Assembly: GCA_044356295.1 (NCBI GenBank)
Contig: JBIKWN010000012.1
Span: 1-51,268, forward strand
Origin: Bdellovibrionota bacterium
GTDB taxonomy: Bacteria; Bdellovibrionota_C; UBA2361; JBIKWN01
Length of the DNA stretch: 51,268 bases
Direction of reading: 5' to 3'
Shown here: in pieces, positions 27,993 through 44,946 of the stretch
Numbering within the stretch: the first letter of the stretch is position 1
How the letters are laid out: the number at the start of each line of letters is the position of its first letter
The notes under the pieces: model-generated
Database searches by the model: none
Told to the model about the DNA's origin: nothing
Seen by the model: the letters and a program-made list of their open reading frames with translations, nothing else
Position numbers and translations under genes: made by a program

Positions 27993-30554
27993 TTAATCTG
28001 TAACCCGACAACTTTCACTCACCGTTGGCAATTTAGCTGCGTCACTCAAGCTTTTACGGTACTGTTTTTTGATTGTTTTTAATGATTTTTTCCCAACAGC
28101 AATATTTGTTTTTGTTGGAAATGTTTTTGCTAAGCTTGTAACAATGTTGATTGCAACGCGATTTATTTTTGTTAATTCAGCTACATATGATTTTCTGGTT
28201 TTTGTATAATCACGACGTTTGCAGAGATTCTTTTTTGGGCAAGATAATCTGGTCGCATTCGGGAGGCTTGAGGCTATACGCGATATTTTATTGAAAGAAC
28301 TGTTTACTTGTTTTTCTAACTTTGAAAGTGAGCTGATATATTTTGTTTTCTTGCTCGCAGACAGTTTTTCACTTGCTAAAATATTCCCATAAAATATTTG
28401 ATCAATAACTGTATCTTTGAGAACTTTCGCAGATGATGTTGCTGTTACTTTTAATTTTACTTTGTTGCTAATTTTGCACCCTTTGTCATTGAAAGTAAGA
28501 GCAGTTGCTTCGATGTCAGGAGCAGTTGCAGAGCCGTTTTCTTCAAGAGTTACTGTGATCGTAGATTGATTTAAATCAAGTCCATCTGAGTTAAAGATAA
28601 TAGAATATGTGCCTGCTGCTAGATTATCAAAACGATAACTACCATCGCTTCCGACTAGTACGGTTTGAATAGCTGTTTTGGAAGTTGAGCTTACTCCCTG
28701 TGGAGACGAGCTTGATGCTTTGCTTATTGAAGCAGAAGTGGCAGGACAAATTCCATTTAAAGGACACGAAATGTTGCCCGCTATATAATTACTTGGTGTT
28801 GGAGTCGGAGCAGGGGTAGCAGGACAAGCACCTGCTGTGACGTATAACTTGCCTGGGGCGTTATTTCGGGTATATGTTCCCATCGGTAGCGAGCCTTCTT
28901 TTCTAAATTCTAAAAGGCCAGGTCCGTTAGCAAAGCCTGAATAACTGGAAACAAAGGCTATGTGATATGGGAGTGAGGTGCTTGTTAATGCATATGCAGG
29001 AAATCCATAAATAGTTTGTGAAGGATAGCTTCCAACATACGGCTTGCTTGCACTGCTTCCATCACCAGTTACACAGATTCTATCAGGACGAGTCGGTATT
29101 GGTATCGGAGTAATGGTTGGAGTATTTGTTGGTAGTGGCGTTGGGGTCGGTGTTGGTGCGATTCCATTTAATGAAGATTGAGCATAAATATAAGTACCGT
29201 TAAAACGACTCCACATGGCGATCGAATTTGTTCCGGCTGCCGACATTGCAACTTGAGGATTTTCTGCATCGCGACCAGATGCTGAAATATTTTCTGCCGC
29301 TGACCAATTAGCTGTGGCTTCAAAAATTGATGCAAGTGATCCTTGAACAATATCGTTACTTCCATTAGAGCGAAGCCAAACAGCTACTGCCATCGTTCCA
29401 TCTGAGGATAAAGCAATTTTATTTCGTGTTGCACTTTCACCTACAGCAGATAAATCACTGATAGTTGCATTCCATGTTGCTGTGTTTCCTGAAATTGTTG
29501 CAGATCGCGACTGTGCTATAGCAACGCTTCCATTACTGCGGGACCAGAAAGCAGTGGAGCTTGTACCATCTGCACTTAATCCAATGACAGGATGTGATGC
29601 ATCTTGTCCTGATAATGAAAGATCCGTAACTGATCCCCAACTTGCAACTTTACCAATAATCGTTGCACTTTTTGATTGGACAATTTTATTGGTACTTCCA
29701 TCTACTCTTAGCCATACTGCTGTTGCTTTGCTTCCATCGGTTGAGAGTTTGAAATCGGGAATAGTGCCGTCGCCACCTGCAGCAGACAGTTCTGTTGCCG
29801 TACTCCAATCTTGAGTATTACCTGTGATTATTGCAGAAGCACTTTGCACTCGCTGCGTTCCTGAGATAGGAAATTGCCATATTGCAGTGGCTAATGAGCC
29901 ATCAGAAGAGATCTCAATTTTTGGATTATCGGCTGAAGCTCCAGAAGCAGAGCGGTCAGTGACGCTTCCCCAAGAAGGAGTTGTTCCTGTAATAGTTGCA
30001 GAAGCAGTACGTGCAATAAAATGACTTCCATCGTATCCAAGCCAAATTGCAGTTGCCTTTGAACCGTTAGAAGAGATCCGTACTTGAGAAAAATCTGGGA
30101 AACCAGCAGCAGAGATTGTGACTGCGGAGCCCCAAGTAGTTGAGCTGGGACTAATCTGAGCAATACGACTTTCTAGTGTGCTATCACTCATAAGATCGCT
30201 TGACCATAATGCAATTGCTGTTGAGCCATCAGCAGAAATTGCAATTCGTGGTGTTCTATTTACGGAACCAAAAGAGGAAAGATCAACTGGTGTCTCCCAC
30301 GTAATGCTACTACCACTAATTCGTCCAGTAGCTCCTTGGATAAGAAATTGTCCACCATTGCCAATTCGCCATACAGCAACAGCACGAGTGCCATCAGCAG
30401 AAAATGCGACCTGTAGATTGTCAGCATTATCCGACGCAATTGAAGCATTTACTGGTGTAATCCACTCGGCTTGGCTCTCTAAACAGAGAGATAAAAATAA
30501 GCAAAGAATTAAAACAGTGAACCGAGTAGTGAAATGAACAAGAGCGTTTATCAT
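27993..30554 (-). CDS. Secreted modular protein: repeat beta-propeller, PT linkers, Ig/CnaB-like domain, basic helical tail
   Basis: About 7 repeats of W...LSA.G..A..P.I..S.DG..A.A.W; PTPTP linkers; DGSYRFDNLAAGTYSI; K-rich C-terminus. Confidence 0.85.
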   Translation of the reverse strand: MINALVHFTTRFTVLILCLFLSLCLESQAEWITPVNASIASDNADNLQVAFSADGTRAVAVWRIGNGGQFLIQGATGRISGSSITWETPVDLSSFGSVNRTPRIAISADGSTAIALWSSDLMSDSTLESRIAQISPSSTTWGSAVTISAAGFPDFSQVRISSNGSKATAIWLGYDGSHFIARTASATITGTTPSWGSVTDRSASGASADNPKIEISSDGSLATAIWQFPISGTQRVQSASAIITGNTQDWSTATELSAAGGDGTIPDFKLSTDGSKATAVWLRVDGSTNKIVQSKSATIIGKVASWGSVTDLSLSGQDASHPVIGLSADGTSSTAFWSRSNGSVAIAQSRSATISGNTATWNATISDLSAVGESATRNKIALSSDGTMAVAVWLRSNGSNDIVQGSLASIFEATANWSAAENISASGRDAENPQVAMSAAGTNSIAMWSRFNGTYIYAQSSLNGIAPTPTPTPLPTNTPTITPIPIPTRPDRICVTGDGSSASKPYVGSYPSQTIYGFPAYALTSTSLPYHIAFVSSYSGFANGPGLLEFRKEGSLPMGTYTRNNAPGKLYVTAGACPATPAPTPTPSNYIAGNISCPLNGICPATSASISKASSSSPQGVSSTSKTAIQTVLVGSDGSYRFDNLAAGTYSIIFNSDGLDLNQSTITVTLEENGSATAPDIEATALTFNDKGCKISNKVKLKVTATSSAKVLKDTVIDQIFYGNILASEKLSASKKTKYISSLSKLEKQVNSSFNKISRIASSLPNATRLSCPKKNLCKRRDYTKTRKSYVAELTKINRVAINIVTSLAKTFPTKTNIAVGKKSLKTIKKQYRKSLSDAAKLPTVSESCRVTD

Positions 30555-30838: not shown

Positions 30839-32074
30839 TTAAGCAGAGGCCCCTTCATGAGCAGACTGAGACTCATTATCAGATTCCAAAACCCAACGCG
30901 GTAAAGAATCTTTGAACGTACTCCATTCGTTTTCACCAAGCTTCATTTCATCGTCATTCAAAAGGCAGCTATCAAAAGAAGCTATAAGATCCTCTTTATC
31001 CATATCAATACCAATGACAACTATTTCTTGACGTCTATCGCCAAACCGAGGGTGCCAGTCTTTCAAAAATTCACTATCTTCCATGACTTCTGGTGGCCAC
31101 ATCTCTTTAGGCGATGCAGCAAGCCATTTACCAGCAGGCTCTGCTCGGCACGAACCACCTGCTTGTGACCAAATACCTGCCCAATCATTTCTCGAAGCTA
31201 ACCAAAAAAATCCTTTTGATCGCAACACACCAGGCCACTCTGTTTTTGTAAGTTCGTTAAATCTCTCTGGATGAAAAGGTTTTCGAGCTCGATATACAAA
31301 ACTTGAAATACCATATTCTTCTGTTTCTGGAATATGAATACCTGAAAGCTCTTTAGCCCATCCTGGTGCCTGAGATGCTTTTTCAAAATCAAAAAGTTTA
31401 GTGTTCAGTATTTCATGGAGATCAACTTTACCGAAACGACTATGAATAACTTTTGCATCTGCATTTAAAGCTTTGATAATTCCCTCAACTTTTCCAAGTT
31501 GATAGTCATCAACAAGGTCGCACTTGTTGAGAACGATGACGTTTGCGAACTCAATCTGTTCAGTAAGAAGATCGACAATTGTTCTATCATCTTGATCATT
31601 TTCGGCAAGCTTTGCTTCAACTAAGTCCTCGTGTGATTCATATAAAGTAAGGAAGTTAGCCGCATCAACCACTGTGACCATTGTATCGAGAGTTGAAACT
31701 TCAGAAAGATTTGCACCTTCTCCCATGTCATAGACAAAACTTGAAGCCACTGGCATTGGCTCGGATATTCCAGTTGATTCGATGAGCAAGTAGTCAAAAC
31801 GACCTTCATTGGCAAGTTTGGATACTTCTTTCATTAAATCTTCACGGAGTGTGCAACAGATACACCCATTGGTCATCTCTACAAGTTTCTCTTCAGTACG
31901 ACTCAGTGATGCCATGCCGCCTTTTACTAGCTCGGCATCAATATTAATTTCACTCATATCATTCACGATAACGGCTACTTTTAAACCTTCTCGATTACTC
32001 AGGATATGGTTGAGTAGGGTGGTCTTTCCAGCACCTAGAAATCCAGATAGGACCGTTGTGGGAAGTTTTTTCAT
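30839..32074 (-). CDS. zigA: COG0523/CobW-family zinc metallochaperone GTPase (ZigA/YciC-like)
   Basis: [31 protein letters not shown], and CobW_C motifs LRSKGFFW and [13 protein letters not shown] at 32074. Confidence 0.93.
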
Positions 32075-32089
32075 AGTATAATTTATCTT

Positions 32090-32108
32090 AACGCAACTAG
32101 GTTGCATT
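32090..32108. promoter_or_regulatory. Palindromic operator 1 (putative Zur/Fur-family box)
   Basis: AACGCAACTAGGTTGCATT overlaps the -10/+1 region of the minus-strand promoter TTGACA(32134-32129)-N17-AATAAT of the COG0523 gene. Confidence 0.75.
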
Positions 32109-32331
32109 ATTGCCCTGTCGTCGTACTATGTCAATTGTTGATTCATATAGCTACAGAGATATTCAAAAATGATTAATGAATTTCTATAGATATACACCAT
32201 AAAAAAACAACATAGATAGAACCCGGCTGGGGGGAATCTTCAACAAATTACTTTCTTTTTGGTAATTAAGAAGCTCTTTAGATATTCAAATATTCGGTGG
32301 ATTCTGGAAGGTATTTTTTATAGCATATCTA

Positions 32332-32350
32332 AACGCAACCAAGTTGCGCT
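32332..32350. promoter_or_regulatory. Palindromic operator 2 (same motif)
   Basis: AACGCAACCAAGTTGCGCT overlaps a TTGCGC-N18-GATACT candidate promoter for the gene at 32405. Confidence 0.75.
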
Positions 32351-32404
32351 AATATAAAGTACTATGTGATACTCGTTGTTGCTCTTTTAAAGAAGTAGAA
32401 CTGT

Positions 32405-33211
32405 ATGGAAATTTTTACAAAACATATTTTTGATTTAGGACAAGCAAGAATGGAAGGACATAATGGCGCAAGCTGTATAACTCGTAAGGGGTGTGTTCAT
32501 GACATGTTTCGTGGATTGTTAGCTCCTGAGGCTGATGGGATTAATGTAGAGTTTGTTGATCATGAAATTTCAGATTTTATGCAACGCCTCGGGTTTCATG
32601 TAAATGGCTCCCATACATTAGGAGAACTCCACTTTACTACAAGCGAACTTGACCCTTCAGCACCCTTTGTATCGGGGAATCTCTTATCCCGTAGACTCCA
32701 AGAATATTTTATAAGTCTGTATGATCCAACTCATGCTTCGGAACTTACCAGCGGGTCCTTATTGCAAGAGATGAGCTATCCGGCTAGTCCAGAGAGTGAT
32801 AAAGAATATCGAAAACTTCTCGGGCATGATTTCTGCTTTTGGGCTTTAGCTTCAGCTAAGTTGATCGTTGATTGGTGCAGTAATCCGGATAATGTAGGTG
32901 ATCGTTCGCAACAATTTCTTGATCAAATACGTGCCAATGGGCTAGTAGATCTGCTTAATTCTACATCACAAGCACTCGGAGTAATCGAAGAAGATGCAGG
33001 TGTTAGGTATGGGGAGTATGCAACATATTTAGAGACACTTCTTGGTCAAACTATAGATTGGGAAGCTGTTACAGATAACCTTACGCCGTTTGATTCGCAA
33101 TCGGCATTTCAGCTCCTTACTATTCAACAACATGTTCGAACATTTTTAAATCACGAGTCTGTGAATGAATTAGCAGGAAAGATTTCTTCTTGGGTCGTAA
33201 ATCGTCAGTAG
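32405..33211 (+). CDS. Hypothetical protein with N-terminal His/Cys cluster
   Basis: 268-aa ORF containing GHNGASCITRKGCVHD; 11 nt from the next gene. Confidence 0.75.
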   Translation: MEIFTKHIFDLGQARMEGHNGASCITRKGCVHDMFRGLLAPEADGINVEFVDHEISDFMQRLGFHVNGSHTLGELHFTTSELDPSAPFVSGNLLSRRLQEYFISLYDPTHASELTSGSLLQEMSYPASPESDKEYRKLLGHDFCFWALASAKLIVDWCSNPDNVGDRSQQFLDQIRANGLVDLLNSTSQALGVIEEDAGVRYGEYATYLETLLGQTIDWEAVTDNLTPFDSQSAFQLLTIQQHVRTFLNHESVNELAGKISSWVVNRQ

Positions 33212-33222
33212 AGTAGACGAAT

Positions 33223-35751
33223 ATGAGTACGCAAAGACAGACGGTCAATCAGACAGCTGGAGCTAAGGGATCTGTAGAAAATGAAAAGCCTGTTGTAGGA
33301 GATATTAAAACTAGTATAGATACTGGCCGCTTAGAATGTGGTTGTGTTGGTACGTGTAAATGTTCTGTGGGATTGAAGCCCTCAGACGTGCCCAAAAAAG
33401 TAAATCCATTACTAGGAAAGAAAGGTATATTTGAGAAAAAGGAATTCTCGGAAGAAATTCCCACTCTTAAGAGCGAAGAAGGTGAAATTGACGAAAAAGT
33501 AGTATCAAAAGATTTAAAGAAAGGAGGGGACCTTAAGACGGATGTAGATACAGGCCGTTTGGAGTGTGGGTGTGTTGGAACTTGTAAATGTAAAGAAGGT
33601 TTGAAACCTACTGATGTCCCTAAAAAAGAGAATCCATTACTTGGTAAAAAGGGATTATTCGGCAATAAAGAAGGCACAGAAACAGGAAAACAGGTTCAAG
33701 GTGAAGTCTCTGTTAAAGAATCGTTGTCTCAAGAACAGAAGGCAAAACAACATGAAGAGGAAACTCCTGTTTCAAAAAACACTCCATCTCAATATTCACC
33801 TGAAGCAGATCAGCACAATGACAATATTTCTAAAGTTCAAATAGAAGCACAGAATATACAAAAAGTGCCAAACGATTCCTTAGTGCAGGAAATCAAAACG
33901 TCATTACATGAGCCCTTAAAGCCAATCGAGCAATTGGCAACATCTCCTGGCGAGGATGTTTCTCTGCATCTAGATACGTTACGACAAAAAACTCAGGAGA
34001 ATAAAAATACTTTTGAGGATCAACTTGTAAGGCGTCCAGAAGTTCTAGAATCTGCTGTAAAGCTAGACTCCAATACTTACTCGGAAAGACAATCGGCGAA
34101 TCAGCAAATCAATAATGAACCTGTTGAAGGTTTGGCTCTAAAAATTACTACACCCAAAGAGCTAGAACTTGTTGCTCAATCCATTCGTGATAGTCAAATT
34201 ATTGAGTCTCGAATTGGAATAGAAAAAACTGAAGAACTCGCAATGCGTACTGAGCAAATTGCAAGATCTATTCAAGAGCAAAAAAATCTACAGCATACAT
34301 CTGAGAACGTCGTGACTAATCGTGAAGCAATTAAATTATTATTTCGCGATATTTCAAAATCGATAGGTACAGAGCCAACAGTAAGAATGATACGTGATGT
34401 TAACGCTAAAATGCTCACAGAACGATTACAGCAACTTGAAAATCAAAAAAATCCTCGTGTCGAAGAAAAGAGTTCTGGAAAGAGTAGTTCAACAACTTTA
34501 CAAGAGCGAGCAAATAAAAATCTCTTAACTGAGCGAGTCATTATTAATGCTACTTCACAAGATTATATTCGACTTAGTCAGATGCTAAGAGTAACCCAAG
34601 CTTTAAACGCACAGAATAAAGGAACACAACTGCAACAATTAGCTAAGCAAGCTGAACAAATTGCAAGACAGATGCAACAACAGCGCAGTGCCCAAGCTGT
34701 TGAATCTAATCGAGAAGCGCAAAGAGCTCATTTGCAAGGGTTAGTTCGTGTTGTGGGTCGACATGAGGCACTTCGAATGCTTCGAGAGCTCAGTTTAATT
34801 GACCAACAACGAGATCAGGCAGCAAGAGTAAAAAATTTTCGTCCGGTGGAGTCCCTTAAGACACAAGAACAAACCAATCTTCGAATTCATCAAGTTAATC
34901 GGAATTTTAAATCATCTGATTTAATTCGTGCTGCACTTATGCTTAGAGCAAATGAAGCCTTGTCACGTAAGCATGCTGAACAGGCTATCTTACAGGTTTC
35001 AAAGCGGTTGGAGGAGTTAGCAAAACTTTTAAAGAATCAGACTACGAATGAAAAGTCTATATCAGAAAAACAGGTTCTTCGTGAGATTTTGAAGGACCTT
35101 CGCGAATCACTTGGAACAGTTGATGCTCAAAGAGTAATGGGAGAGATTATAAAAAATCTCCAAGTACGCCCTCGCGGTGAAACGATCAGCACTGTGGAAG
35201 CGGGACTCCAAAGAAGAGAACAAATTCGGACTGAACCTCAGCACATTGATAGAGCGCTTGGGTTGTTGAAGGGATATGTACCACAGTTACAAACTTTGCC
35301 GGTGGCATTACAACAAATCATTGCTGTTTATCTTATGCAGCAACTTGCTCAATATCGATCAGCACAAGACCTCTGTGCCATGATTGAAGAGATCAACTCT
35401 GAGTGGGCAGAACGTATGAAAGATATCGATATAGAGATGCTCTTACGTGCAGGTATTGATATTGTTTCTGATTCAGATAGCTACAAAAGGAAAACAAGAC
35501 AACGAATCAGAAGTAGTGTTGATTTGATGAGCGATAAGAGGAGAAAAGTTCAATCAGCAACAAAACAATCACTTGGAGAAGGTATGACATCGGGGTCTAA
35601 GCTTTCTGCCCAAACTCAGAGTTCTAAGTCTCAAGTGAAAGCTGATACAAATGGTCCTATCGCAGAGTTAATAATCACGCGCGTTAAATCGGATGATAAG
35701 CCTAAAATTGAGGAAGCTGAAAAGGATAATGTTATTCATCCGATTCCTTAG
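33223..35751 (+). CDS. Unknown helical-repeat protein A with two CGCVGTCKC metal-binding-like repeats
   Basis: 45-aa repeat at 33298-33432 and 33526-33660; C-terminal half is paralogous to 35732..38173. Confidence 0.85.
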   Translation: MSTQRQTVNQTAGAKGSVENEKPVVGDIKTSIDTGRLECGCVGTCKCSVGLKPSDVPKKVNPLLGKKGIFEKKEFSEEIPTLKSEEGEIDEKVVSKDLKKGGDLKTDVDTGRLECGCVGTCKCKEGLKPTDVPKKENPLLGKKGLFGNKEGTETGKQVQGEVSVKESLSQEQKAKQHEEETPVSKNTPSQYSPEADQHNDNISKVQIEAQNIQKVPNDSLVQEIKTSLHEPLKPIEQLATSPGEDVSLHLDTLRQKTQENKNTFEDQLVRRPEVLESAVKLDSNTYSERQSANQQINNEPVEGLALKITTPKELELVAQSIRDSQIIESRIGIEKTEELAMRTEQIARSIQEQKNLQHTSENVVTNREAIKLLFRDISKSIGTEPTVRMIRDVNAKMLTERLQQLENQKNPRVEEKSSGKSSSTTLQERANKNLLTERVIINATSQDYIRLSQMLRVTQALNAQNKGTQLQQLAKQAEQIARQMQQQRSAQAVESNREAQRAHLQGLVRVVGRHEALRMLRELSLIDQQRDQAARVKNFRPVESLKTQEQTNLRIHQVNRNFKSSDLIRAALMLRANEALSRKHAEQAILQVSKRLEELAKLLKNQTTNEKSISEKQVLREILKDLRESLGTVDAQRVMGEIIKNLQVRPRGETISTVEAGLQRREQIRTEPQHIDRALGLLKGYVPQLQTLPVALQQIIAVYLMQQLAQYRSAQDLCAMIEEINSEWAERMKDIDIEMLLRAGIDIVSDSDSYKRKTRQRIRSSVDLMSDKRRKVQSATKQSLGEGMTSGSKLSAQTQSSKSQVKADTNGPIAELIITRVKSDDKPKIEEAEKDNVIHPIP

Positions 35752-38173
35752 GCTTCTTATCATCACTTTTAACCCTAGAAATTATCAACTCAGCGATAGG
35801 TGAGCTAGTTTCAGCTTTAACATTTTGTCCAATTTTTGCTGCATTCTTCGAAGTAGCAGTAATGCCTTCTGTGGCAACCTGTTTTTTACCGCTACCGATG
35901 ACTCGTCTTTTATCTGAAATATCTTGTGGAATTGACCTACTTACGACACGTCGCTTTCTGCGTGGATTTCCTGCATCGGAATCTGCTACTTCAATACCAG
36001 CTCTAAGCAGCATTTCAATATCTTTTTCTTTGAGCATTGCGGCCCATTCAGCATTAACTTCTTCTACCATCGCGATTAAATCTTGAGCAGTTCTGTATTG
36101 TGCAATTTGTTGCATTAGATAGACCGCAATTAAACGTTGTAGCGCGTTCGGCAACGAGCTCATCTGAAGATTATTTAATCGCATTGCAGATAAAATTCGT
36201 TCTGTTCTTTCAACACTAACTCTTACTTCTAACTGTCTTGCCTGCAAAGATCTGTCGTTTAAATTGTTTCTGAGTTGGATATCACGGTAGAGTTGCTTTA
36301 TTAATTTATCACCATCTTTTCCGAGGCTTTCCCTGATTTCTTTTATAAGAGCTTTGAATTTTTGTCTGTCGAGCTTCGTTGGATCTTGGACAAGTTGTTC
36401 AAGGCGTTTGCTTAGATTTTGGATAGTTTCAATGCCATATTTTTTAGTAAGTGCTTCATTTGTACGAAGCATTTGCGTTAGTCGACTGATATCTTTTTGA
36501 TTGGCTGCAACAGCGACTCGGCTAGCAATTTGTCTACTGATTTGTTCTGTTACTACTGGTGATTGCGTTTGTTTGATGCTTCGCTCTACTGTTGTGCTAT
36601 CCGTTGTCATTTGAGATTGGCGTAATGTACGCAGCAATTTGAGAGCATCTTCTCTTCCGGTGGTATTCATTAACTCTCTAATAACAATTCTAGTTAATTG
36701 CTTATCGGATAAGCTTCGATCCTGTAATCGATTAGAGTCAATCATCTTAGGGATTTGTTCTAGGCGTTTAATAAGAGCTTCAGTTTGTGTTTTGCCAATT
36801 CTATCTACTAATTGCCTGCTATTACGCAATAATTCAGCCAGCCTAGTAATGTCTTGTGGGTTGAGGTTCGCAGTGGGACGGTTGATGTTTCGTACAGTCA
36901 GTTGATCTTCTTTTTGGACGGTAAGACTTTGAGCTTTGACGCGATCTCTCTCTACTGGTTGAGAACTAACTTGAATTTTTTTACTTAACTCATTTGGTAC
37001 CGAAGAAGTGCGTAGATTTTTATTACTAGTACTCTCAAGCACTTTAAAGGAACTACTCAGTGATTCTCTTGCAACTTGTGCTCTGATTTCTAATGACCTT
37101 TCTGTTGTTCGGTCAATTTGAAGTTGATCTCTAAGTTCTTCTCCTAAATTTTCAATTTTAGTTATTAACTGACTGGTTTTAGCTGTGTAAATATCTTTTG
37201 AAGTCGATTGTCCTTGTAGTGAAGTCCCTACCATTTGTGATAAAGGATCATTGTTATGAAGAGAAGCTTGTTGTGTTTGCACAGCTTGATTAGTTATTAC
37301 TGTCTCGGTAGGTCGTCTATCAACTTCAACTTGAATCCGTTGAGAAAGGTTCGATGCTAAGTTTTCTGGGGTGTTCTCAACAATTTCTGTTTGAAGTCTG
37401 GTATTTATCCCTTCAGATGTTGAAGCTGTTTTTAGATCTAAAACTTCACGACTTGCTATTGTAGCTTGATCTCCCTGTATTGGCTGCACAGGTGCTTGAA
37501 CTGTTTCGTAAGAAGATGCAGAGCGGACTGGATTATTCAGATCAACTTTGTTATCTGAGATAGTGGGTGGATTTGATTCAGCTGGTTGAACAGGTTGCTT
37601 TAGTTGGGTTTGCTCTGGAACAGGTGTTACGGTATCTCCATTTGAATTTAATTCTACTTTCAAAGCACCACTAGTAGAGCTGCTTGCAGTAATGGATTCA
37701 GGATTTTGTTGTAACTGTTCACCAATTTGTTTACCAATTTCTAAAATTTGATCTCTGTTGATAGCTTCTCGATTTGTATCCGGATTGCCACCAATGTGCG
37801 CATTTGGATCTTGAGAACCAAGCGCCATCCGTGTCGCATCAGTTTGGCTATCATAAAAAGATTTGAATTTAGCAGGGTCATCTAGAATTTCTTGATAATT
37901 TCGTCGAGTTTCCTCTGGAATGGATTTGTCAGTAATAATTTTTTCCATACCTGCGCGCACAGACTCAGGTAAACAGCAGTCAAGAATTTTTGTTGCCGAG
38001 GCTGTTTGAAGATTCTGACTGATAGTTGGATTTTCATCGATTACTTCGAGTAGCGACTCTGTGGGTGAGCGTCTACCTTGCCTCCCAGCGGAAGGTGACG
38101 GTACGGTTGGAGTTGTAGCTTCAGCCGCTTCTGCTGAATTAAGTTCTTGACGAGGCTGGGCTGTAACTCTCAT
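35732..38173 (-). CDS. Unknown helical-repeat protein B (paralog of A)
   Basis: Shares IAVYLMQQ.AQYR.AQDL.AM.EE.N.EWA, DIEMLLRAGI and PIAELII.RVKSDDK with A; DCC near the N-terminus. Confidence 0.85.
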   Translation of the reverse strand: MRVTAQPRQELNSAEAAEATTPTVPSPSAGRQGRRSPTESLLEVIDENPTISQNLQTASATKILDCCLPESVRAGMEKIITDKSIPEETRRNYQEILDDPAKFKSFYDSQTDATRMALGSQDPNAHIGGNPDTNREAINRDQILEIGKQIGEQLQQNPESITASSSTSGALKVELNSNGDTVTPVPEQTQLKQPVQPAESNPPTISDNKVDLNNPVRSASSYETVQAPVQPIQGDQATIASREVLDLKTASTSEGINTRLQTEIVENTPENLASNLSQRIQVEVDRRPTETVITNQAVQTQQASLHNNDPLSQMVGTSLQGQSTSKDIYTAKTSQLITKIENLGEELRDQLQIDRTTERSLEIRAQVARESLSSSFKVLESTSNKNLRTSSVPNELSKKIQVSSQPVERDRVKAQSLTVQKEDQLTVRNINRPTANLNPQDITRLAELLRNSRQLVDRIGKTQTEALIKRLEQIPKMIDSNRLQDRSLSDKQLTRIVIRELMNTTGREDALKLLRTLRQSQMTTDSTTVERSIKQTQSPVVTEQISRQIASRVAVAANQKDISRLTQMLRTNEALTKKYGIETIQNLSKRLEQLVQDPTKLDRQKFKALIKEIRESLGKDGDKLIKQLYRDIQLRNNLNDRSLQARQLEVRVSVERTERILSAMRLNNLQMSSLPNALQRLIAVYLMQQIAQYRTAQDLIAMVEEVNAEWAAMLKEKDIEMLLRAGIEVADSDAGNPRRKRRVVSRSIPQDISDKRRVIGSGKKQVATEGITATSKNAAKIGQNVKAETSSPIAELIISRVKSDDKKPKESDE

Positions 38174-38188
38174 CGAAGAGCCTTACCT

Positions 38189-39982
38189 TTAATGAGCGCT
38201 ATGCATATTTGGATTCTCACGAAGCGCTTGTGATATTTGAGCCCATGTCGCAAGGCGCTTGTCTAATGGAAATTTAGCAATGAGTGAATCAATATTTTTT
38301 GCTGCACGTTCCAGTAACTCTTTAGAGATATCTTCCTGTTCAATTGCTGAATTTATAATGTATCGAAAAACTTCTCGTTCAATAGGAGTTACTTCAACAT
38401 CATCATTAATTGCAAGTCTTGATGAACTTGCTATACCTTCTAGTAAAGTAGTTGCAGGGCGTCTCTCACTGAGCGGCTTAGAAGATAACTGTAAAAACTC
38501 AGGGTCATTGTTAATCATTCTACTAATTTGTGGCTGATACAGAACACGAGACGCTGCATAACCAACAGTAATTGCATAATCACTTGCATTGTTCGATTGT
38601 TTTACTTGATCGGTTTGAATTATTTCTAGTAGATTGGTACGAACTCGCATGTGTTCATAGACAAGTTCAGAAACGGCGAACCCTAGATCCTCTAGTGCTT
38701 GTTTATCTTCAATCCCGCGAGCAAAAGGAAGTATATTTAATAGTTCATCTAAATTTCTATCCTCTGGGTAAGAAAGCAGTACTTCTTTGTAAGTATGCAT
38801 TGCTTCAAATATCTGTTCACGTGTCGGATAGTTGGCTCGAATTGCATTGATGGTATCTTCTGTTAAATCAACCATGCCGATTTTTGAAGCAAGCTGGACT
38901 AGTGACAACTCTTTAAAAAAGCGGTTAGTCGATGAGATACAAAGAAAGTTTCGTCCATCAAATAAGGTTGATGCCTCAGCTCGAGCAGATTTTACAAGCT
39001 GTAAACCTGAATCCGTTCTTATAATGTCAATATCATACCCACCGATGGCTCCCTTCGCGCGTGCAACAGGTTTTGCATCCCCTTCAACAGAAAGTGAGTC
39101 TAGTCTTTTAACCAATTCTTCAGGAGTCAGCGCCGGACTTAAAAATAACAATACCTCAGTAAAGTTTTGTACATCCATAGTTCTACTCATTTCATATCGA
39201 CCTGCTTTTGCATCATTTGCACTCCCAAAACCTAAGCTACCCTTTGATGGCTTTGATGAACCGATTTGAACAACGGGGCTTTGGGGCTTTTGCCACAGGC
39301 GTGAAGCGGATTCCCAAACTTTTAGTAACGGCTCTGTTGCTCCATTATCAAAAAGGACTTCAGGTTTATCAGTTACATCAGATGTTGCGCTTGTAACAAA
39401 TGCTTGGACTTTGTCGAGTTTCTCTTGAATTGCAGGGTCATTCGAATCAACATGCGAAACTAACACAGTCGATGACGCACGAGCATGACGCCATTGATGA
39501 GATTGGAATGCATTCAACTGTTCAGGTGAAACGACAGCAACAACTGCTGGGTTGTATCCTTGCGCCTTTAGCGTGCGTGCAAGTTCTGCTGCATCAGAAT
39601 ATCCTGATTGTTCAATCAGAAAAAAATTTCTACCACTTGTTTTTAATCTCTTTAATTCATCAAGTACCTGTTTATTTGCAGCACAACAAGCGCATCCTTC
39701 GATTCCAACAGTATCGGTAATTTCTTTAGGCAGTCTATCAAGGTCAACTCTTGGGGAAGCGCCTTGAATCTCAGTTACTATGACTCCTGTATTTTTTGCT
39801 TCCTTACCTAAACCTTTAAGTACTCTAATCACACGTTCAGTTTTGCCGCAGCCTCGAACACCAGCAAAAATTAAAATTCGATTATCATCTGATGATAATG
39901 GGAATATTGACGGAGATTGAAATGTACCTACTGAAGCACTAGGTGTAACTTTCGGGGCATACGATGGAGAGATTTCAGACAT
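38189..39982 (-). CDS. Divergent COG0523-like GTPase fused to an unknown C-terminal domain
   Basis: GVRGCGKT, VIVTE, GCACC, LIEQSG and ARAKG motifs; G4 motif reads SHVD; S/P-rich N-terminal extension. Confidence 0.8.
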   Translation of the reverse strand: MSEISPSYAPKVTPSASVGTFQSPSIFPLSSDDNRILIFAGVRGCGKTERVIRVLKGLGKEAKNTGVIVTEIQGASPRVDLDRLPKEITDTVGIEGCACCAANKQVLDELKRLKTSGRNFFLIEQSGYSDAAELARTLKAQGYNPAVVAVVSPEQLNAFQSHQWRHARASSTVLVSHVDSNDPAIQEKLDKVQAFVTSATSDVTDKPEVLFDNGATEPLLKVWESASRLWQKPQSPVVQIGSSKPSKGSLGFGSANDAKAGRYEMSRTMDVQNFTEVLLFLSPALTPEELVKRLDSLSVEGDAKPVARAKGAIGGYDIDIIRTDSGLQLVKSARAEASTLFDGRNFLCISSTNRFFKELSLVQLASKIGMVDLTEDTINAIRANYPTREQIFEAMHTYKEVLLSYPEDRNLDELLNILPFARGIEDKQALEDLGFAVSELVYEHMRVRTNLLEIIQTDQVKQSNNASDYAITVGYAASRVLYQPQISRMINNDPEFLQLSSKPLSERRPATTLLEGIASSSRLAINDDVEVTPIEREVFRYIINSAIEQEDISKELLERAAKNIDSLIAKFPLDKRLATWAQISQALRENPNMHSAH

Positions 39983-40053
39983 AAGTCTCTGTTTAATTTA
40001 TTCAAATCTTGGTTAGACTTTTTTATTTTAAATCTAAATCTTGAATAGAAGAA

Positions 40054-40112
40054 TGCGGCGAAATGTCGCACCTATGAGTACTCATAAAGTCTTAGTGCGG
40101 CACATTGCCGCA
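40054..40112. promoter_or_regulatory. Compound palindromic regulatory site between divergent genes
   Basis: TGCGGC-N5-GTCGCA (40054-40070), TATGAGTACTCATA (40073-40086) and TGCGGC-N5-GCCGCA (40096-40112). Confidence 0.65.
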
Positions 40113-40183
40113 TTGATTCAACGGGGAGAATTGGTATTTTATCAACTGTAATTTTAAATAAACGAAATTGTAGTATTAAAATC

Positions 40184-40840
40184 ATGCAACCAGAACAAGA
40201 ACCTCAAGTAATTTCTGCTGACACGTTAAGAACAGCCACTTTCAACCGAGCTGAGATAAAAAAAGAGAATGCATGGGATAAATTTGGTGTAGGAGTCTCT
40301 GCTGCCTGTACTATTAAGTGTGTTGGACTTCCACTTATAACAGCAGCGCTTCCTTCTTTAGGAGCACTATCTGCATTTTCTCATTCACCTGCTGCCCATT
40401 GGGGGGTATTTGCTCTTGCAGCGCCTGGTGCTGCACAACTTTTTCATGATGGGGGAAAGAATGAAAGACGTTTTTCTAATGCAAGTTTTGCATCATTTGG
40501 ATTAACGCTTATGGCGATGGGTGCAATTGGTCATACTATTTTACATGGATCTGGTCACGACCATACTGGGCATGGGGATATGTCAGAGATGAATCATGAT
40601 ATGGGTTCTAAGATGGGCGGCACTGATCACTCTATGCACAACATGGACCATTCTGGCATGGATCATTCTATGCATGATATGAAATCCGAGGTCCAGCAAC
40701 CAGCAGCAGTTGTGTTTGATCCCGCCGCTGCAGGTCAGAAGGCAATTGGAGATATATCTCACTATAGTTTTTTAATAGGTGGTCTGATTCTTGGAGTGGG
40801 ACACTTGAGGAGATTTTTTTATAATAGAAAACAACAGTAA
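40184..40840 (+). CDS. MerC-domain-like membrane protein with His/Met-rich loop
   Basis: WDKFGVGVSAACTIKCVGLP resembles the MerC D..G...S..C..HC...P pattern; four TM helices; GHDHTGHGDMSEMNHDM...DHSMHNMDHSGMDHSMHDM. Confidence 0.75.
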   Translation: MQPEQEPQVISADTLRTATFNRAEIKKENAWDKFGVGVSAACTIKCVGLPLITAALPSLGALSAFSHSPAAHWGVFALAAPGAAQLFHDGGKNERRFSNASFASFGLTLMAMGAIGHTILHGSGHDHTGHGDMSEMNHDMGSKMGGTDHSMHNMDHSGMDHSMHDMKSEVQQPAAVVFDPAAAGQKAIGDISHYSFLIGGLILGVGHLRRFFYNRKQQ

Positions 40841-44814: not shown

Positions 44815-44946
44815 TTATTCATCCGACTCCTCCTTAGGTTTCTTATCTTCACTCTTCACCCTAGAAGTTATTAATTTAGCAACTGGTGAACTCGTTTCGG
44901 CTTTAATATTTTGTCCTATTTTTGCTGCATATTTCGAAATAGAAAA
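44815..44946 (-). pseudogene. Relic 3' end of a third paralog of proteins A/B
   Basis: Encodes SKYAAKIGQNIKAETSSPVAKLITSRVKSEDKKPKEESDE*, 33/40 identical to the C-terminus of 35732..38173. Confidence 0.88.

Follow-up and report, generated by a model that had tools for sequence, protein, structure and literature searches.

What links two COG0523-type NTPases, a MerC-like membrane protein and two large proteins of no named family in one 10-kb locus of a Bdellovibrio-group bacterium from a lake? The locus lies in a window of 51,268 nucleotides, the whole stretch of DNA analyzed here, which is rich in large ORFs without family assignment. The initial annotation read its six genes as a mirror-symmetric system for zinc starvation or metal handling, in which the large proteins A and B serve as metal-binding clients, stores or exported partners. 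Our analysis confirms the sequence observation behind that interpretation and supports the interpretation itself in part.

Results

Layout of the locus

A re-check of the ORFs in the segment 30839..40840 returned the gene order and strands first described, and all of the sequence features listed for it are present (Table 1). Every gene carries a Cys/His motif: GCICC in the canonical COG0523 protein (ZigA), H..C..CVH in the 268-aa ORF, two CGCVGTCKC motifs in A, DCC in B, GCACC in the long divergent COG0523-type NTPase (COG0523L) and a His/Met loop in the MerC-like protein. Operator 1 denotes the 'twin operators' of the first description, two exact copies of CGCAAC-N3-GTTGC; its 'palindromes' upstream of the MerC-like gene make up operator 2. 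The 268-aa ORF lies 11 bp upstream of A, 15 bp separate the end of the COG0523L gene from the start of B, and the convergent 3' ends of A and B overlap by 20 bp (35732-35751). A contig from a second lake-water run (X2 record 13, 35146-35821) spans this joint with zero differences, as does the probable source run (X1 record 8).

Table 1. Coordinates of the genes and operators in the window.
Feature	Position	Strand	Basis or remark
ZigA-type canonical COG0523 GTPase	30839-32107	-	Pfam cobW and CobW_C, NCBIfam ZigA equivalog
Operator 1 copy a, CGCAAC-N3-GTTGC	32092-32105		exact pattern match
Operator 1 copy b, CGCAAC-N3-GTTGC	32334-32347		upstream of 268-aa ORF and A operon
268-aa ORF	32405-33211	+	4 Cys, 11 His, no relatives
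Protein A, 842 aa	33223-35751	+	paralog of B, two CGCVGTCKC motifs
Protein B, 813 aa	35732-38173	-	paralog of A, single CC pair
COG0523L, 597 aa, long divergent COG0523-type NTPase	38189-39982	-	Pfam cobW, AF2, Foldseek
Operator 2 palindromes	40054-40112		divergent promoter region between COG0523L and MerC-like gene
MerC-like membrane protein, 218 aa	40184-40840	+	Pfam MerC 43.4 bits
Remnant of B-like gene, last ~40 codons	44824-44943	-	75% identical to B aa 773-812

A conserved three-gene module

The mirror-symmetric layout around a canonical ZigA proved unique to this genome: the fetched flanks of the 13 other loci contain a canonical COG0523 gene in no case. Rather, the conserved unit consists of three genes, namely a Cys-pair membrane protein, COG0523L and, directly downstream, a CC protein. 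In all nine loci with downstream DNA (the window, L014, L015, L026, L028, L029, L030, L031 and L032), an A/B-type large protein is the next same-strand gene after COG0523L, at a distance of at most 20 bp or overlapping it; only L014 has a wider gap, of 107 bp. This operon linkage spans at least five genera, so homologues of A and B neighbor metal genes elsewhere too, as the initial annotation had anticipated. The ORFs listed next to the module include no secretion-system genes.

A profile of the COG0523L C-terminal domain matched 12 of the 91 genomes of the order and 12 of 124 across the phylum, which leaves none among the 33 phylum genomes outside the order. A pattern scan of the genomes of 185,579 species confirmed nine COG0523L loci, all of them in MAGs titled Bdellovibrionota, Bdellovibrionales or 'Proteobacteria bacterium'. 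Judged from these sequence searches, and within the range that they covered, the module is confined to one order of a small phylum labeled Bdellovibrionota. Its occurrence there is patchy.

A Cys-motif membrane protein is encoded directly upstream of the COG0523L gene in 11 of 13 loci, L014 and L027 being the exceptions. In our window it is the MerC-like protein, which exceeds the Pfam MerC cut-off of 27.6 bits and, as in the MerC/MerT proteins of mercury uptake, has a Cys pair in its first hydrophobic helix (CTIKC; C42 and C46 are its only cysteines). It differs from them in matching no NCBIfam model and in an inserted 46-aa loop rich in His and Met (aa 121-166, nt 40544-40681; 10 His and 9 Met). 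Unlike in mer operons, family scans of the window ORFs of at least 150 aa and of the six-gene locus revealed no other mer-type gene. Orthologs of the MerC-like protein adjoin COG0523L in G001 and G017, and in genus g8 an unrelated membrane protein of ~110 aa with a CPLC motif occupies its position. The broader claim that COG0523 genes often lie next to MerC-type genes found no support in the literature searched, where the matches that we opened were to an author named Merchant.

COG0523L is a divergent member of the G3E group

COG0523 (G3E) metallochaperones with clients include ZigA, YjiA, ZNG1-METAP1, CobW and MigC-MurD. Like these proteins, COG0523L is a P-loop NTPase with a YjiA fold and a CxCC between Walker A and B, and it is encoded beside a presumptive partner and metal transporters. 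Its Pfam cobW match (48.7 bits) covers residues 37-193 only. The protein has the P-loop (aa 41-48), GCACC (aa 96-100, nt 39683-39697), IEQSG and, in place of NKxD, SHVD. In ten aligned sequences the P-loop, GCACC and IEQS are invariant, [ST]H replaces NKxD, and the Walker-B glycine has become proline in six. Because the guanine-specificity motif is gone and the Walker-B glycine is often replaced, COG0523L may work differently from a canonical G3E GTPase.

The AF2 model (pLDDT 82.8, pTM 0.76) contains a YjiA-like α/β middle (aa 255-367) and an added helical domain of ~210 aa (aa 375-588). Pfam CobW_C, by contrast with canonical members, finds no match. Top Foldseek matches are YjiA (1nij and 4ixm), then HypB, and sequence matches follow the same order; YjiA, the nearest solved structure, was crystallized with Zn(II). 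In the G089 variant of COG0523L, a His-rich insert bears a second CxCC. The module departs from the COG0523 systems, one of which is covered with its client in an excerpt of PMC12208494, in two further respects: its partner is a mostly disordered non-enzyme of 700-800 aa with no cysteines beyond those of the putative acceptor site, and it carries a RegA-type palindrome instead of the operator that ZigA has here.

The large proteins combine a cysteine motif with basic helical repeats

A and B are paralogs by sequence (37% identity over 402 aa, E 3e-59) within an unnamed family. As the initial annotation held, no named family accounts for them: Pfam and NCBIfam scans gave zero matches, PHROGs nothing and PADLOC one weak match only. 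An exhaustive profile search for the A/B-type family found six matches among 1.84 billion representatives, one of which (P0008) links the family to the genus-g8 proteins, and a BLAST comparison of B with the G007 protein comes up empty. Run X4 represents a related strain, whose synonymous and non-synonymous variants stand at 6:4 in A and 5:6 in B, counted on single contigs at depth 2-4, which amounts on these sequences to a synonymous excess over random mutation.

The CC proteins share a layout in which the N-terminal CC motif is followed by disordered acidic sequence, then by helical repeats of basic charge and a C-terminal tail that is conserved. This tail, A-D-x3-P-x3-L followed by acidic residues, is common to all 12 aligned members of the family (nt 35641-35700 in A; aa 787-806, nt 35756-35815 in B). 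Composition is of low complexity and charge polarity is kept: the N-terminal half is acidic, whereas the C-terminal one reaches up to +11 net per 50 residues. In A, three repeats of ~110 aa are detectable in the C-terminal half (E 2e-8 and 0.002); A also has the conserved C-terminal block and tail. In B, a small helical domain (aa 68-118) precedes the disordered acidic stretch and the basic helical repeats (aa ~325-725). The AF2 model of B has a mean pLDDT of 53.2, with blocks 68-118 and 540-640 at 85-95 and 434 of 813 residues below 50. The description of A and B as large helical-repeat proteins applies to the C-terminal half and fails for the rest. The folded parts of B returned generic helical-bundle structural matches only (best Z 7.1), and we found no signal peptide, hydrophobic segment or transmembrane segment in the B-type protein (maximum 19-residue hydropathy 1.4). 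Rather than an enzyme, B resembles a soluble scaffold or adaptor that binds polyanions.

In the CC proteins encoded downstream of COG0523L (685-813 aa), every cysteine belongs to a vicinal CC motif close to the N-terminus, of which a protein has one or two. Exactly two cysteines, always as an adjacent pair, occur in each of B, P0005 and four g8 proteins, which span this size range (in B, C66-C67 of DCC; nt 37973-37978), and the G007 protein contains four, as two CC pairs. In A, eight of nine cysteines fall in two Cys4 motifs, CGCVGTCKC at nt 33337-33363 and 33565-33591, within a duplicated 76-aa unit; the direct repeat D1 of the A gene has a spacing of 228 nt. All eight cysteines of P0010 (counted by eye) also lie in two Cys4 motifs. 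That cysteines are almost wholly limited to the N-terminal motif fits a thiolate ligand site, and they are the sole hint that B might be a metalloprotein.

Two operators divide the locus

ZigA scores 605 bits against NCBIfam equivalog NF038288 (cut-off 600), matches Pfam cobW (188 bits) and CobW_C (90.9 bits), and carries GCICC at aa 81 and NKCD at aa 194. A sigma-70-like promoter (11/12 match, 32134-32106) overlaps the start of the longer ZigA ORF, and the NCBIfam alignment begins at residue 15; the true start is therefore probably Met12 (nt 32074). Copy a of operator 1 lies after the predicted -10 box and ahead of the ZigA start. The 2.96-Mb assembly contains three distinct exact operator 1 sites, two of them in this locus, and ZigA, the 268-aa/A operon and a TonB-dependent receptor have the operator in common. 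Its core also adjoins canonical COG0523 in the two remaining genomes of the genus. Judged by the genes downstream of it, which include ZigA and a TonB-dependent receptor, operator 1 is probably zinc-responsive and marks a Zur-type regulon. The 268-aa ORF matches nothing in Pfam or NCBIfam, is present in one of 91 genomes of the order (this one), and found only itself among 802 candidates scored in a collection of 5.8 billion proteins; its atlas model has a pLDDT of 0.35.

Operator 2 consists of TGCGGC-N5-GCCGCA, perfect at 40096-40112 and with one mismatch at 40054-40070, and a perfect 14-bp palindrome (40073-40086) between these two GCGRC-N5-GYCGC palindromes. Scanned as GCGNC-N5-GNCGC, the underlying GCG-N9-CGC palindrome occurs in the module promoter region of 10 of the 11 module loci scanned, with three more matches in the ~154 kb scanned. 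The whole 2.96-Mb assembly contains ten such sites, one of which precedes a His-rich outer-membrane protein that starts with a DPCC motif.

In 5 of 13 loci the module adjoins a RegB/RegA-like two-component system; in this genome the pair lies on contig C46, away from the module. The best, full-length NCBIfam matches of the adjoining kinases and regulators are ActS/PrrB/RegB and ActR/PrrA/RegA, at scores beneath the equivalog cut-offs (155-217 vs 350 and 115-154 vs 250, respectively). The regulators share the Fis-type HTH and the kinases the 6-TM domain of that system, to which the kinases add a His-rich loop. In Rhodobacter, the RegB/RegA (PrrB/PrrA, ActS/ActR) gene cluster includes the copper chaperone gene senC/prrC; here, too, a metal chaperone gene adjoins the regulator pair, although it encodes a cytoplasmic G3E type and not a periplasmic Sco protein. 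The module operator is a GCG inverted repeat, as has been proposed for PrrA/RegA in an excerpt of PMC4263372. The regulator of the module would most likely be a RegA/PrrA-type response regulator acting on GCG-N9-CGC. RegA-like regulators are far commoner than the module (57 of 91 genomes at E<=1e-25). Of the two large proteins, A alone stands under the ZigA-type operator; zinc starvation is not indicated for the core module, since B, COG0523L and the MerC-like gene stand under operator 2.

Discussion

We judge the chances evenly balanced that the module is a thiol-based metallochaperone and partner relay. This proposal draws on the gene families, synteny, conserved motifs, cysteine census, conserved operator and COG0523L fold observed above. 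The membrane protein, which has its Cys pair in the first helix and is here MerC-like with a His/Met-rich loop, would import a thiophilic metal ion into the cytoplasm, for which copper(I) or zinc are guesses. COG0523L would receive the ion on its kept CxCC site and would pass it to, or share it with, the vicinal Cys pair of B. A GCG-N9-CGC-binding regulator, presumably of the RegA/PrrA type, would switch the module. In this genome the large gene is duplicated, copy A having exchanged its CC pair for two Cys4 motifs and moved, together with the orphan 268-aa gene, behind operator 1, which probably marks a zinc (Zur-type) regulon.

The relay would resemble the CcoA-CopZ-CcoI route, which, according to an excerpt of the review PMC7558416, delivers copper via the cytoplasm to cbb3 oxidase, with an inner-membrane importer that has Met/His ligands followed by a cytoplasmic chaperone. 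The likeness is one of logic, and a link of the module to copper or an oxidase is conjecture. The same excerpt holds that further, uncharacterized copper importers probably exist.

If the CC pair were instead a redox switch, the large protein could act as an NTPase-governed scaffold bound to a polyanion, be it nucleoid, ribosome, polyphosphate or membrane, in a module that answers RegB/RegA. Redox sensitivity is part of the name of the family to which the adjoining, best-matching regulators belong, and the charge polarity of the large proteins, the extensive disorder of B and the loss of canonical GTPase motifs from COG0523L would suit such a role. We consider it unlikely, because the CxCC invariant in all ten COG0523L sequences is the metal site of COG0523 proteins and because its partners in the module, membrane proteins with a Cys pair, come from a family of metal transporters. 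In addition, a His-rich outer-membrane protein stands under the operator 2 motif in this genome, and the Cys4 motifs of A and P0010 and the His-rich insert of G089 look like ligands and not like switches.

Alternatively, the large proteins could be fast-evolving structural, surface or predation proteins that merely share the operon, their tail being a sorting or secretion signal. Divergence so extreme that BLAST draws a blank between B and the G007 protein, the low-complexity composition, a tail that is the most constant element and the many large family-less ORFs of the window would all be expected of such proteins. Against this, the operon linkage holds in nine of nine loci, apart from the tail only the cysteines are constant, and neither an export or membrane signal in the protein nor secretion-system genes in the listed ORFs beside the module were found, which makes a non-metal role quite improbable.

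Least probable is that the whole 10-kb locus forms a single zinc-starvation system under Zur-type control, with A and B as zinc clients or stores of both COG0523 proteins: ZigA truly belongs to a family whose annotation is that of zinc chaperones, operator 1 stands before the operon of A as well as before a TonB-dependent receptor, a usual component of zinc regulons, both A and P0010 have Cys4 motifs that look like structural zinc sites and YjiA was crystallized with Zn(II), but B, COG0523L and the MerC-like gene have operator 2 and not operator 1, the fetched flanks of the 13 other loci contain no canonical COG0523 genes, the module elsewhere adjoins a RegB/RegA-like system, one or two thiol pairs per 700-800 residues make no store, and a His/Met-rich loop with thiol-only sites suits copper(I), by its general chemistry, at least equally well.

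As a metallochaperone and partner relay, the module would resemble an undescribed route by which these bacteria may supply a novel type of partner protein with metal.

Three genes form the conserved module

The order and strands of the genes described in the initial annotation are reproduced by the ORF list of the window (see the table of features), and every Cys/His motif claimed for them was found. A and B, the two large proteins of the locus, are indeed paralogs, with 37% identity across their last 400 residues (E 3e-59), and their convergent genes overlap by 20 bp. Because the tails of the two proteins are homologous, an imperfect inverted repeat of 66 nt (I1) lies at this joint. Contigs from two lake-water runs, one of them from a sample different from the assembly's likely source, span the joint without differences. 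As had been suspected, neither protein belongs to a named family: A and B have no match in Pfam, NCBIfam or PHROGs, and the same three libraries returned nothing for the 268-aa ORF.

Features of the locus and of related loci (L-numbers denote loci outside the window)
Feature	Location	Strand	Length	Remark
Very large ORF	18795-23651	-	1618 aa	no Pfam family
Signal-peptide protein	27993-30554	-	853 aa	
ZigA-type COG0523	30839-32107	-	422 aa	
Operator 1, first copy	32092-32105			exact CGCAAC-N3-GTTGC
Sigma-70-like promoter	32134-32106			TTGACA-17-AATAAT, 11/12 match
Operator 1, second copy	32334-32347			exact CGCAAC-N3-GTTGC
268-aa ORF	32405-33211	+	268 aa	
Protein A	33223-35751	+	842 aa	
Protein B	35732-38173	-	813 aa	
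COG0523L	38189-39982	-	597 aa	
Operator 2, imperfect copy	40054-40070			
Operator 2	40096-40112			TGCGGCA-N3-TGCCGCA
MerC-like gene	40184-40840	+	218 aa	
B-like gene remnant	44824-44943	-	last ~40 codons including stop	75% identical to B residues 773-812
G089 COG0523L variant	L027:3-1190			more divergent; GCVCC instead of GCACC
TonB-dependent receptor (Plug + barrel)	L047:1511-3013 (contig C69)			start overlapped by third exact operator 1 copy
Outer-membrane-type protein	L053:1476-2609 (contig C27 of this genome)		377 aa	Pfam Phenol_MetA_deg, 26.7 bits
RegB-like kinase	L057:2006-3349	-		
RegB-like kinase	L014:6732-8018			
RegB-like kinase	L056:1419-2666	-		

The mirror-symmetric layout, which the initial annotation took for a system, did not hold up beyond this genome, nor did the link of the module to a canonical COG0523 gene. 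In the flanks fetched for the 13 other loci encoding COG0523L, the divergent COG0523-type NTPase, a canonical COG0523 gene occurs in none, and the 268-aa ORF is found in this genome alone among 91 genomes of the order (a word-indexed homolog search likewise returned only the query). The ZigA side and the mirror are therefore peculiar to this genome. What is conserved, rather, is a module of three genes that encode COG0523L, a large B-type protein and a membrane protein with a Cys motif.

Full-length relatives of COG0523L occur in G001, a genome of the same genus (44% identity), in G007 (31%) and in G017 (29%); a further relative in the protein collection, P0003, is named 'G3E family GTPase' (40%). 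A profile built on the region that follows the G domain matched 12 of the 91 genomes of the order (7 of the 55 high-quality ones) and, across the phylum, the same 12 of 124, that is none of the 33 outside the order. A pattern scan of 185,579 species, one genome each, confirmed nine loci, all in MAGs titled Bdellovibrionota, Bdellovibrionales or 'Proteobacteria bacterium', and a metagenome scan added one more, L056. The comparison covered 14 loci in total.

All nine loci with downstream DNA (the window, L014, L015, L026 and L028-L032) carry a large B-type ORF next to COG0523L on the same strand, 685-809 aa long where complete. The two genes overlap or lie at most 20 bp apart, with the exception of L014, at 107 bp. 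On the other side, upstream DNA is available for 13 loci, and in 11 of them the immediate neighbour of COG0523L, placed ahead of it or divergently, encodes a Cys-motif membrane protein. The window, G001 and G017 have a MerC-like one, seven loci of the type found in genus g8 a protein of about 110 aa with a CPLC motif, and G088 a Cys-rich protein of 265 aa. G007 and G089 depart from this pattern; in G089 (L027) the gene directly upstream does not encode a membrane protein. P0003 and P0005, a protein of the A/B type, are each recorded on a 24,951-bp contig, which is compatible with their sharing one contig, though no proof of it.

The window is rich in very large ORFs without a Pfam family, one of 1618 aa among them. 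Another ORF encodes a protein that has a signal peptide, repeats itself internally and contains Thr/Pro linkers; all its Pfam matches are sub-threshold. The family libraries searched cover the proteins of this lineage poorly. Separately, the 3' end of a B-like gene lies in a stretch of 30% GC behind a methyltransferase-like gene; its similarity to B extends no further upstream.

COG0523L keeps the metal motif in a modified GTPase frame

Pfam cobW matches COG0523L with 48.7 bits over its first 190 residues only. Within this region the P-loop is intact: the Walker A motif GxxGxGK[ST] reads GVRGCGKT (residues 41-48), with G41, G44, G46 and K47 invariant in all ten sequences. The CxCC motif between Walker A and Walker B is equally preserved as GCACC (residues 96-100; invariant in 10/10) and aligns with GCICC of the window's ZigA. 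In the Walker B/switch II region IEQS is invariant, followed by G in four of the ten sequences and P in six, where ZigA has ESTG. By contrast with the COG0523 family, COG0523L lacks the guanine-specificity motif NKxD and carries an added domain. At the NKxD position, where ZigA keeps NKCD (residue 194), the ten sequences read SHVD, THV, SHL or TH, with only the histidine invariant.

The AlphaFold2 model of COG0523L (pLDDT 82.8, pTM 0.76) comprises a G domain (residues 35-231), a low-confidence linker, an alpha/beta domain (residues 255-367) in a protein without a Pfam CobW_C match, and an all-helical domain (residues 375-588) that canonical COG0523 proteins do not have. In Foldseek and in a PDB profile search alike, YjiA of E. 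coli ranked highest, its Zn(II)-bound structure among the matches, and HypB and SRP GTPases came next. The Foldseek alignment with two-domain YjiA covers 352 columns (E 8e-7) at TM 0.24/0.42 and an rmsd of 21, and the domain arrangement differs. By these features COG0523L is a distinct COG0523 subfamily, one that has kept the metal site and probably lost GTP specificity. In the G089 variant, a His-rich insert between the G and middle domains contains another CxCC motif and some ten histidines.

The partner family shares a tail, a charge profile and cysteine sites

Standard searches reveal no relatives of B. A word-indexed homolog search with B residues 420-813 returned the query alone; against 41 genomes, B matched this genome only, apart from one 16-bit match in G018 that we took as noise; and a BLASTP comparison with the syntenic protein of G007 reached a best E of 0.076, on the LDCC motif only. 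An exhaustive profile search of 1.84 billion representatives at E<=0.001 recovered six proteins of the family: B, a fragment identical to part of A, the full-length P0005 (785 aa) and three further fragments. The cluster of one fragment contains P0010, a protein of 717 aa whose tail reads like those of the genus-g8 proteins and therefore ties the groups together. The 12 aligned members have one C-terminal tail in common, A-D-x3-P-x3-L with acidic residues after it, and before it a linker rich in lysine/arginine or serine/glycine. The charge profile is likewise conserved, with an acidic N-terminal half, a strongly basic C-terminal half and an acidic end, and a hydrophobic segment of membrane-spanning length is absent.

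The cysteine pattern is the second constant of the family. B, P0005 and four g8 proteins contain exactly two, adjacent to each other, in 685-813 residues; the large G007 protein has four, forming two CC pairs, and that of G017 has eight, including two CC pairs. In A, eight of nine cysteines lie in two Cys4 motifs, as do all eight of P0010 (counted by eye), whose N-terminus has two C-x2-C-x5-C-x-C motifs in place of the CC pair. The parallel between A and P0010 implies that the Cys4 form arose, or was kept, more than once. We define the A/B family by cysteines confined to N-terminal CC or Cys4 motifs, a basic helical C-terminal half, the tail and a gene position directly downstream of COG0523L. 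B shows all four traits. A shares the cysteine confinement, the basic half and the tail, and lies instead behind the ZigA-type operator.

An AlphaFold2 model of B from a 12-row alignment has a mean pLDDT of 53, and 434 of its 813 residues, the tail included, fall below 50. Its confident parts are two small helical units, one right after the CC pair (residues 68-118) and one at residues 540-640, with long helices between them. A contains three detectable internal repeats of about 110 aa. Structure searches did not yield a fold for B: among 48,161 chains the best Z was 7.1, for apolipophorin and CARD-like bundles, a range common for helical models. The ESM Atlas gave no usable feature matches for B or the 268-aa ORF (structural rows at TM 0.33 or below), a PDB profile search with the C-terminal block of the family found nothing below E 0.5, and a metagenome scan with the C-terminal alignment confirmed none of 249 pattern matches. 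A PADLOC match of B to an Argonaute-associated model (19.6 bits) is absent in A and in the G007 and G067 relatives, and we therefore take it to be compositional. A complex prediction of COG0523L with only the C-terminal 79 residues of B scored 0.04 (mark 0.32), which counts neither for nor against a contact.

A related strain, seen at low depth, has six synonymous and four non-synonymous variants in A, and five and six in B, those non-synonymous in B being clustered in the disordered part. These counts give a weak hint of constraint.

Operator 1 links A to a ZigA-type gene

The product of the canonical COG0523 gene matches NCBIfam ZigA (NF038288) over model positions 1-389 of 390 with 605 bits, a narrow margin above the equivalog cut-off of 600, and both Pfam cobW and CobW_C. 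A sigma-70-like promoter overlaps the start of the listed ORF, and the alignment with the ZigA model begins only at residue 15, which is why the true start is likely Met12 (nt 32074), making the listed ORF 11 codons too long. The first copy of operator 1 lies just downstream of this promoter, and a second exact copy stands between ZigA and the 268-aa ORF. The 2.96-Mb assembly holds a single further exact site, directly upstream of a TonB-dependent receptor, which probably shares a regulon with ZigA and A. The operator core also adjoins the canonical COG0523 gene in the other two genomes of the genus. Our analysis was confined to exact sites; at one mismatch, operator 1 is no commoner than a reversed control (13 and 12 versus 21 and 12). 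From the kind of genes it precedes, we infer that operator 1 binds a zinc-responsive repressor. A is best seen as a paralog recruited to a ZigA-type, presumably zinc-responsive, regulon.

Operator 2 and its candidate regulators

Between COG0523L and the MerC-like gene lie the palindrome of operator 2, an imperfect copy of it and, between the two, a 14-bp perfect palindrome. Scanned as a regular expression in 11 module loci (L026, L027 and L041 being left out), the pattern GCGNC-N5-GNCGC, to which the palindrome conforms, occurs in the module promoter region of ten and is absent from L033; the window has two copies, as does G007, where one precedes a kinase gene. Outside the module promoter regions, the roughly 154 kb scanned hold three further matches. 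The whole assembly contains ten: two are those of the COG0523L/MerC-like intergenic region, one lies 32 bp upstream of the gene of a 377-aa outer-membrane-type protein, and the others fall inside genes or between convergent genes. Since an operator 2-type site precedes its gene, the 377-aa protein is probably co-regulated with the module. Long stretches of this protein are rich in His and Asp, and its signal sequence is immediately followed by a DPCC motif.

Of the 13 loci with upstream DNA, five (G007, G067, G055, G057 and L056) have a histidine kinase gene next to the module, together with that of a response regulator bearing a Fis-type HTH. The NCBIfam models that score best, over the full length, are ActS/PrrB/RegB and ActR/PrrA/RegA (NF033792 and NF033791), at 155-217 bits for the kinases against an equivalog cut-off of 350 and at 115-154 bits for the regulators against 250. 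These ranges include the pair of this genome, which lies on contig C46, away from the module, and they would make the proteins distant RegB/RegA family members at most. RegB kinases carry a quinone-binding GGxxNPF motif in a membrane loop; the kinases read GGYQNPF (this genome), GGASNPF (G007) and GGSTNPL (L056, genus-g8-like) at this position. For PrrA/RegA, a GCG inverted repeat has been proposed as the binding site (Imam et al., PMC4263372). No operator 2 site was seen by eye upstream of this genome's kinase. RegA-like regulators occur in 57 of the 91 genomes of the order at E<=1e-25. Because they are so widespread, and because the pair sits away from the module here, our assignment of operator 2 to a RegA/PrrA-type regulator is no more than moderately strong.

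In all three RegB-like kinases of the table, a His-rich stretch (for example HHQHHSH) lies between membrane helices. These kinases may sense metal besides, or instead of, redox state.

A possible thiol relay for metal

The MerC-like protein scores 43.4 bits with Pfam MerC (PF03203; gathering cut-off 27.6). Its only cysteines, C42 and C46, form a pair in the first helix, and a 46-residue loop holds ten histidines and nine methionines. A Pfam scan of 35 window ORFs, comprising those of at least 150 aa and the genes of the locus, found no MerR, MerA or MerP gene of a mer operon. The idea that COG0523 genes often lie near MerC genes found no backing in the literature searched; in one paper the term matched the author name Merchant. 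Searches on COG0523 with MerC or Bdellovibrio brought up no account of a COG0523L/CC-protein module. Neither the CC/Cys4 partner family nor the membrane protein with the CPLC motif nor the 268-aa ORF has a name.

Vicinal or paired cysteines recur at each step: DPCC at the outer membrane, C-x3-C or CPLC at the inner membrane, GCACC in COG0523L and CC/Cys4 in the large protein. This recurrence, together with the tight operon coupling, points to a thiol-based relay that would bring a thiophilic metal from the cell exterior to an acceptor in the cytoplasm; any function given to the module follows entirely from sequence logic. COG0523L would provide the nucleotide-driven hand-over step. Its pairing with the CC protein can be likened to that of a COG0523 chaperone and client, with the P-loop and CxCC common to both. 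From its build, B would be a soluble, polyanion-associated scaffold or adaptor rather than an enzyme, and its conserved tail may be a short docking motif, for which the extra helical domain of COG0523L is an obvious candidate partner.

Two metals come into question. The His/Met-rich loop and the thiol-only sites lean toward copper(I), being, as we take it, reminiscent of copper(I) handling. A cytoplasmic copper route has a precedent, CcoA-CopZ-CcoI (PMC7558416). The relationship to YjiA and the Cys4 variants lean toward zinc.

A more far-reaching proposal, which we put forward as speculative and rather improbable, is that COG0523L and the CC proteins constitute a new metallochaperone class. 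Its client would be no enzyme but a giant, disordered, polycationic scaffold whose sole Cys pair completes an intermolecular thiolate site with CxCC, the tail and the helical domain forming the docking pair. A dedicated outer-membrane channel and a Cys-pair inner-membrane importer would feed a RegB/RegA-controlled allocation of copper(I) (or zinc) in the cytoplasm when respiration changes.

COG0523 proteins occur in all kingdoms. To our knowledge, very few of their clients have been recognized, and finding them is the main open problem of the field. The COG0523L subfamily comes with an obligatory, predicted co-transcribed partner whose candidate acceptor site takes up all the cysteines that its 700-800 residues contain. 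The site is unmistakable, and transfer from chaperone to client could therefore be tested directly with a pair of proteins and a single double mutant. In addition, the locus hints at a metal entry route that is so far uncharacterised, in which a membrane protein of the MerC-like or CPLC kind would act with the His-rich outer-membrane protein that stands under the same operator. It also raises the possibility that, outside the Proteobacteria, redox signalling of the RegB/RegA type is linked to metal allocation. Should the partner turn out to be a scaffold bound to a polyanion, the range of what metallochaperones are taken to serve would widen.
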